64,000 bases of DNA, taken from Dictyostelium discoideum (taxonomy: Eukaryota). Under the pieces are notes generated by a model. The model worked only from the letters and a program-made list of their open reading frames with translations. It had not been told where the DNA came from and ran no database searches. Below, piece by piece: positions 7,204 through 7,356 of the stretch. The position numbers were made by a program, and so were the translations under genes. The stretch is from the NCBI GenBank assembly GCA_000004695.1, contig CM000154.2:1056001-1120000 (forward strand). Direction: 5' to 3'. Position 1 is the stretch's first letter, and every line of letters starts with the position of its first letter.

Positions 7204-7356
7204 TTAGTTAATATCGAAACTAAATATTGATACTGCACTTCCATTTTCTTTCTTTGTACCTGAATGTAATGTCCAAATTGATTTCCCAACATATCCTGTC
7301 ACAATCGGTCCTATATTATATGGGAATGATTTTGATGCTGTTAAGTTTTGTCCCAT
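7204..7356 (-). pseudogene. Orphan 50-codon ORF matching the N-terminus of SCY1-like (SCYL1/NTKL) pseudokinases, ended by an in-frame TAA; no kinase-domain exons downstream
   Basis: The minus-strand ATG at 7356 gives MGQNLTASKSFPYNIGPIVTGYVGKSIWTLHSGTKKENGSAVSIFSFDIN*. Compare the human SCYL1 N-terminus ..[43 protein letters not shown]... No GT donor replaces the stop, and the next 600 nt downstream are non-coding repeats. Confidence 0.45.

Follow-up and report, generated by a model that had tools for sequence, protein, structure and literature searches.

The open reading frame (ORF) at 7204–7374 on the minus strand of the window (the whole 64,000-nt stretch of Dictyostelium discoideum DNA analysed here) is very probably a non-functional partial duplicate of scy1, lying at the 3' end of a young, promoter-less composite on the same strand. 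In order, the composite consists of a truncated and frameshifted copy of an ARM-repeat gene, a copy of exon 1 of a 3,282-aa gene that lacks its ATG and promoter and carries a nonsense change, and the scy1 piece, which is joined at the string AAAAAATGTA. The pieces presumably came from unlinked loci and were pasted in as DNA. The parts of the composite are the following:

7735..8988, minus strand: partial copy of the ARM-repeat gene DDB_G0277993, residues 127–524 (DNA and protein comparison with the intact gene)
7584..7735, minus strand: AAT/AAC repeat (poly-Asn part of the exon-1 copy) and about 40 nt of ARM-gene 3' flank (locus comparison)
7372..7583, minus strand: unique part of the copy of exon 1 of the 3,282-aa gene (comparison with the same-genome parent)
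7370..7379, minus strand: junction string AAAAAATGTA, 10 nt (comparison with parent exon 1)
7204..7374, minus strand: scy1-derived ORF, 56 codons and TAA (translation, phmmer, tblastn against Scy1, and orthologue alignment)

That mis-assembly of reads from separate loci produced this arrangement is scarcely conceivable. The junctions do lie in A/T-rich low-complexity sequence, but the same arrangement was present in a second assembly, GCA_054883475.1, in which CM142511.1 matched window positions 1–15499 with zero mismatches and four repeat-length indels in 15.5 kb. Furthermore, the copies have diverged from their parents, unlike mis-joined reads.

Translation of 7204–7356 (minus strand) gave 50 codons and TAA, exactly as an earlier note on this DNA had claimed. 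However, the ATG at 7374, 18 nt upstream of 7356, marks the start of both the homology and the open frame, so that the unit is 7204–7374 with 56 codons; the ORF starts MYIFKL-MGQN..., the ATG at 7356 encodes Met7, and the full product is MYIFKLMGQNLTASKSFPYNIGPIVTGYVGKSIWTLHSGTKKENGSAVSIFSFDIN-stop. Comparison with D. discoideum Scy1 (DDB0220502, 'DdNTKL'; sequence from Table S2 of Goldberg et al. 2006, PMC1420674) showed 53/55 identical residues (96%) between ORF codons 1–55 and Scy1 residues 1–55 (tblastn E=3e-29), the two changes being Q15K and D44N. Codon 56 encodes Asn instead of Lys and is followed by the stop, such that the window reads FDIN-TAA at the point where Scy1 reads on as ...FDIKKNPSK. 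Identity to D. purpureum Scy1 (DICPUDRAFT_55347) was 70%.

A phmmer search with the ORF peptide against 1.84 billion representative proteins returned 31 matches at E<=1e-3, the best of which were from Synstelium polycarpum (1.7e-12) and Cavenderia fasciculata ('SCY1 family protein kinase', 2.2e-11). Most of the 31 matched as a single stretch, over residues ~1–60 of proteins with kinase-like and HEAT regions; four were spurious matches to repeat proteins in multiple stretches. When six dictyostelid orthologues and an animal SCYL1 were aligned with it, the ORF retained all of the invariant columns (F17, G22, S32, WTLH at 34–37, G39, K42, G45, VS at 48–49, F51, F53, and D54 in ORF numbering), and the conserved SCYL1 N-terminal segment (FPY-IG ... 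WTLH-GTKK ... VSIF-FD) was present. The residue-for-residue match to the SCYL1 N-terminus noted earlier is thus borne out, with the start moved from 7356 to 7374. By sequence comparison, the 7204–7374 ORF is the N-terminus of a SCY1-like (SCYL1/NTKL) pseudokinase. The ORF peptide alone matched no Pfam family and no PDB structure, and a word-indexed homologue search with the 50-aa peptide gave no match; this negative is uninformative, since the same search also missed known homologues sharing seven 5-mers.

Several dictyostelid Scy1 orthologues (among P0039–P0043) begin at MGQ(N/G)L(S/T), an N-myristoylation-like start, and the D. discoideum and D. purpureum Scy1 models carry six extra N-terminal residues (MYIFKL and MNFFKF, respectively). 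The true Scy1 start may be Met7.

The rest of Scy1 was searched for by tblastn with seven SCYL1 queries (six SCYL1 proteins and the first ~400 residues of D. discoideum Scy1) in the 64-kb window and 6.4 kb beyond it, and only 7374–7207 was recovered. The reported lack of kinase exons within 600 bp therefore extends to this entire region, and the HEAT repeats found in homologues were likewise absent from the window by tblastn. The Pfam kinase domain of Scy1 covers about residues 28–251, and the ORF ends at residue 56. Since the domain begins at about residue 28 and the homology ends at 55, the fragment has at most the first ~28 kinase-domain residues; a complete kinase-like domain (Pfam Pkinase, about 230–260 residues) is absent, the peptide having no Pkinase match. 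Unlike Scy1, the ORF stops after residue 56 and has neither HEAT repeats nor a C-terminal tail. All that remains would be the N-terminal tail plus two or three initial strands of the kinase-like fold, up to 'VSIF' (the VAIK equivalent). Lacking every HEAT repeat and the remainder of the kinase-like domain, the ORF is not expected to yield a useful product.

Exon 1 of the D. purpureum orthologue (P0040, locus L005) is uninterrupted to about codon 123. As both this exon and D. discoideum Scy1 run past codon 55, the copy breaks inside an exon. The early stop without a donor site was confirmed: no GT donor is present ahead of the in-frame TAA after codon 56, and splicing therefore does not rescue the stop. 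Judged from these features, the ORF is a stand-alone 5' fragment that ends early and is not rescuable by splicing. That it is instead exon 1 of a functional gene, with its other exons beyond a very long intron, is vanishingly improbable; the intact reading frame, and nothing more, speaks for this, whereas the parental exon continues past the donor-less TAA, neither the 7.2 kb of the window that lie downstream nor the next 6.4 kb (L001) contain Scy1-like exons, and Dictyostelium introns are given as typically 60–250 nt by Goldberg et al. (PMC1420674). The disabling lesions of the composite comprise the stop after codon 56 within the parental exon and the neighbouring TAG and 7-nt insertion; the regulatory context is lost as well, the sequence upstream being foreign coding DNA.

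The string AAAAAATGTA is the end of the exon-1 copy (...AAAAAAT followed by the GTA donor) and also the start of scy1 (ATGTA...). At this point the parent of the exon-1 copy reads ...TCTTTTAAAAAATGTA followed by AAAAC, that is, the exon end and then GTA of the intron donor, and the window reads ...TCTTTTAAAAAATGTA followed by TATATTTAAATTAATGGGA. Because Scy1 starts ATG TAT ATA, at least ATGTA was common to both parents; up to 10 nt would have been shared if the ATG of the real scy1 gene is preceded by the usual run of A. The scy1 piece starts at its own start codon or a few bases before it and includes no promoter, and nothing upstream of it in the composite provides one. The exon-1 frame differs from that of scy1, and its TAA (7355–7357) overlaps Met7 of the scy1 ORF.

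The earlier note had regarded the ORF as a 5' gene fragment left in place by a deletion or rearrangement that kept the promoter. Its description as a stand-alone, prematurely ending 5' fragment stands, but neither the origin in place nor the promoter does. The DNA that extends upstream from position 7379 is a copy of another gene's first exon, in another frame and with a TAG, rather than an AT-rich promoter. A synteny check against the D. purpureum scy1 locus revealed no shared neighbours and no other homology with the window; the fragment lies at a different locus, without the scy1 promoter, and pieces of other genes adjoin it. An ancestral scy1 locus from which everything after codon 55 was deleted or rearranged away would account for a fragment that begins at the native start codon with an open frame. 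Such a relic is nevertheless highly unlikely, given the foreign upstream exon, the lack of synteny, and the fact that full-length AX4 Scy1 differs at 2 of the 55 residues although the genome here is AX4-like (identical ARM protein).

The ARM-repeat part of the composite was compared with its parent locus, and window 8979–7362 (minus strand) proved homologous to the DDB_G0277993 locus. The copy lacks residues 1–126 (the 5' third is absent) and carries a 7-nt frameshifting insertion at 8610–8616, and its native stop is retained at 7770–7772. The intact ARM gene lies together with the neighbouring 3,282-aa gene on CM142509.1 (locus L006), another chromosome of the same assembly; the copy shows 95–96% DNA identity to it, and the protein of the intact gene is identical to AX4 DDB_G0277993. 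The locus order of ETF gene, ARM gene, and a gene of ~3,000–3,350 aa was found in three D. discoideum-group genomes, with the synteny on CM142509.1 being the same as in D. citrinum and D. firmibasis.

About 1.6 kb of extra DNA lies between the ARM gene and its giant neighbour in the AX4-like parent (L006 5830–7400). Neither a wild D. discoideum isolate (L002) nor D. citrinum, D. firmibasis, or the window copy has this DNA, and its comparison with the window and the other loci showed no similarity. The DDB_G0277993 protein of AX4 (P0037) is only ~93% identical to that of two isolates labelled D. discoideum (P0001 and P0038), and identity to 'D. cf. discoideum' is 88–89%. Such divergence appears fast for a within-species comparison and would be consistent with what Holland et al. 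2025 (PMC12745789) remark on cryptic species.

Beyond the ~40-nt ARM 3' flank, the composite continues abruptly with the poly-Asn repeat from exon 1 of the neighbour, the exact junction being blurred by low-complexity DNA (7584..7735). The parent's intergenic region, promoter, and ATG and the first ~12 codons of the 3,282-aa gene are absent from the copy. The unique 214 nt of the exon-1 copy (7583–7370) differ from the same-genome parent by one base, a GAG to TAG nonsense change at 7581–7583, and the copied sequence extends to the parent's GT donor. The copied stretches contain no parental intron.

To assess age and selection, codon changes in the ARM gene were assigned by parsimony with the wild D. 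discoideum isolate as outgroup. The lineage of the copy accumulated 7 synonymous and 16 non-synonymous changes, compared with 45 synonymous and 18 non-synonymous changes on the ancestral/outgroup (ACTFIR) branch. Constraint is relaxed in the ARM copy, which drifts neutrally. The copy has derived states in common with the AX4-like parent and is therefore younger than the split between the AX4-like lineage and the wild isolate. Divergence from the parent is significantly lower in the exon-1 piece (1/214 differences) than in the ARM piece (about 3%; Poisson p~0.015), which makes a single-event origin doubtful; either the two arrived at different times or gene conversion took place. The scy1 piece has kept its 56-codon frame open with only two amino-acid changes, both conservative. 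This is fewer than the ~6 changes expected from the divergence of the ARM copy, a difference that was not significant, and the open frame may reflect either a young age or a degree of constraint.

As far as one junction indicates the joining mechanism, the composite was likely assembled while a DNA break was being repaired, through microhomology-mediated end joining or replication template switching, and perhaps not in a single event. Intact parents of the ARM and exon-1 pieces were located in the same assembly. The parent of the scy1 piece would be the gene for the full-length Scy1 known from the AX4 kinome paper, the genome here being AX4-like. Loss of scy1 in the D. discoideum clade was at first considered because a homologue search with a chimeric query returned dictyostelid SCYL1 proteins and no D. 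discoideum-group entry (nor any homologue of the 631-aa neighbour); this reading is excluded by the Scy1 sequence in Table S2 of the kinome paper (PMC1420674).

The submitter annotation of GCA_054883475.1 places a 481-aa gene across 9000–7204. Rebuilding this model with introns of >=50 nt gave no solution; the 481-aa length was reproduced by four solutions, only with micro-introns of 22–49 nt, and every solution used a 35-nt micro-intron (7372–7338) that leads from the exon-1 donor into the scy1 frame. Automated predictions that hide pseudogene lesions under bogus introns have been described in Dictyostelium by Goldberg et al. (PMC1420674). The 481-aa fusion model is almost certainly an artefact, judging from its splice structure, and this model, which covers the ARM copy, exon-1 copy, and scy1 ORF, should be flagged as a composite pseudogene.

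The gene model across 9000–7204, the intact ORF, and the MGQ(N/G)L(S/T) start conserved in several dictyostelid orthologues might point to an expressed young chimeric gene (481 aa) or to a micro-ORF for the 50-aa MGQNLT... peptide, which could be N-myristoylated and interfere with Scy1 partners. We regard either form of expression as very unlikely: the 481-aa model needs micro-introns below normal Dictyostelium size, a frameshift and a nonsense codon interrupt its pieces, for which no promoter was identifiable, and the substitutions in the ARM copy look neutral. A partial, non-functional duplicate thus remains the preferred reading, and its biological weight would be small, as an intact gene elsewhere presumably carries Scy1 function and the fragment is predicted to be unable to fold into a pseudokinase.

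The immediate surroundings of the scy1 piece contain two further small features:

7181..7202, no strand assigned: hairpin AATGTTGT-GTAGCT-ACAACATT, directly after the stop and near the end of scy1 homology
6920..6970, minus strand: ATATTGCCCTACTATT, occurring twice without mismatch at a spacing of 35 nt, as a local tandem duplication within AT-rich non-coding sequence

The duplicated 16-mer described earlier is real (0.01 matches expected by chance), with its coordinates now corrected to 6920–6935 and 6955–6970 (minus strand), and it has no demonstrable connection with scy1. A 38-nt similarity between window 6939–6976 and the D. purpureum scy1 intron is AT-rich and was judged to be due to chance.

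Construction of the composite by a mobile element, through Pack-type or Helitron-like capture or through template switching by a retrotransposon reverse transcriptase, is unlikely. It is true that several unrelated gene pieces follow one another head to tail on a single strand, that the exon-1 piece terminates on an exon boundary or <=3 nt from it, that a hairpin follows the scy1 piece, and that a B-box-like GGTTCGATTCT is present at 9038–9048. However, hairpins of this kind occur nine times in the window against 4.7 expected, and the one at 7181–7202 is not clearly above chance. Inverted repeats in 5400–13100 are low-complexity tracts only, as are flanking direct repeats. No transposase or reverse-transcriptase ORF was seen nearby, no Rfam family came near threshold around the composite, and no tRNA gene was found there, the B-box-like motifs included, by ARAGORN or Rfam. 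Of the marks of a processed pseudogene or retrocopy, a poly(A) tract is lacking 3' of the scy1 piece, and the ARM piece keeps its ~40 nt of 3' flank. As for a Helitron-type end (5'-TC...hairpin...CTRR-3'), the nearest CTAG is ~28 nt from the hairpin and no T follows it.

There are two B-box-like motifs resembling the tRNA T-arm on the plus strand, TTCGATCCG at 9004–9012 in addition to GGTTCGATTCT, and both lie immediately beyond the ARM copy at its left end. About 12–17 tandem 8-nt units (CATTAACA or CATCAACA) lie at 9132–9268 (plus strand), between the ARM copy and the Sec16 fragment:

9470..9817, minus strand: Sec16 fragment (domain match just upstream of the ARM copy, same strand)

This fragment encodes only positions 1–77 of the 298-position Sec23-binding domain (TPR_Sec16; E=4e-11, stitched frames), with a frame break near 9650–9700 and too little space ahead of the ARM copy for the remaining positions; public annotation cuts the region into 504-aa and 102-aa models. 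A weak match to the start of the FH2 (formin) domain, with a stop at its end, was observed at 11076–11336 (minus strand; 18.8–19.3 bits, cut-off 34.8), and stitching of the neighbouring frame at 11336–11076 gave no higher score; this stretch may be another displaced gene piece. On the plus strand, the frames 5949–6254 and 6273–6491 (NGLLNINTFSNLL...IRHYRITIKESNQL...) look coding, with a stop directly before them. They showed no ATG, acceptor site, Pfam match, or public gene call and may represent a further orphan fragment. With Sec16, FH2-like, and orphan ORF pieces around it, the scy1 piece is set among displaced gene fragments. An MIT-domain gene (3598–5493) and a DENN/SMCR8-like gene (13064 onward) bound this interval. 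G+C content in the window is 15–40%.

A more speculative proposal, to which we attach a low probability, is that ~7200–11700 (minus strand) serves as a recurrent landing site, into which template-switching repair has at different times inserted pieces of unlinked genes, head to tail and without promoters. The candidate pieces (possibly a formin bit, Sec16, ARM, giant-gene exon 1, and scy1) range from about 0.5% to about 4% in divergence from their parents. If so, Dictyostelium would have here a natural workshop for exon shuffling, which could now and then produce chimeric transcripts or an N-terminal Scy1 peptide of 50 aa, possibly N-myristoylated.

Compared with known systems, the scy1 piece resembles the duplicated kinase pseudogenes of Dictyostelium described in PMC1420674 in being a DNA-level copy of its parent disabled by truncation or stops, and in having its lesions masked by a gene prediction with bogus introns. 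Unlike them, it is a copy of ~170 nt, too short for a kinase-domain screen, and is fused to unrelated gene fragments; it is not among the kinase pseudogenes named in the main text of that paper, whose full list has 15. The tgrBC hotspot of Dictyostelium contains duplicated partial gene fragments under apparently neutral drift (Holland et al. 2025, PMC12745789). The pieces described here are likewise duplicated partial fragments in apparent neutral drift, but the tgrBC fragments derive from neighbouring genes of the same locus, whereas here the donors are unlinked and no polymorphic recognition genes are involved. Collinear, same-strand, unrelated pieces with a short shared string at the junction are also a feature of Pack-MULE/Helitron or MMBIR/FoSTeS-type mosaics; in contrast to Pack-MULE/Helitron mosaics, no element termini, target-site duplications, or element genes were found here. 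Partial gene fragments have thus already been reported in Dictyostelium, for kinases (PMC1420674) and tgrBC (PMC12745789), and what is new is one further instance. Its main practical value is annotation correction. It also has modest evolutionary value as a dated, same-genome case of unlinked Dictyostelium gene pieces joined at a short shared string.

Elsewhere in the window, two large ORFs on the plus strand were recognised by eye. The first, at 47570–49954, is 2-oxoglutarate dehydrogenase E1-like, and the second, at 55196–60985, resembles a large Sib (integrin-beta-like) adhesion protein with two C-terminal NPxY-type motifs.
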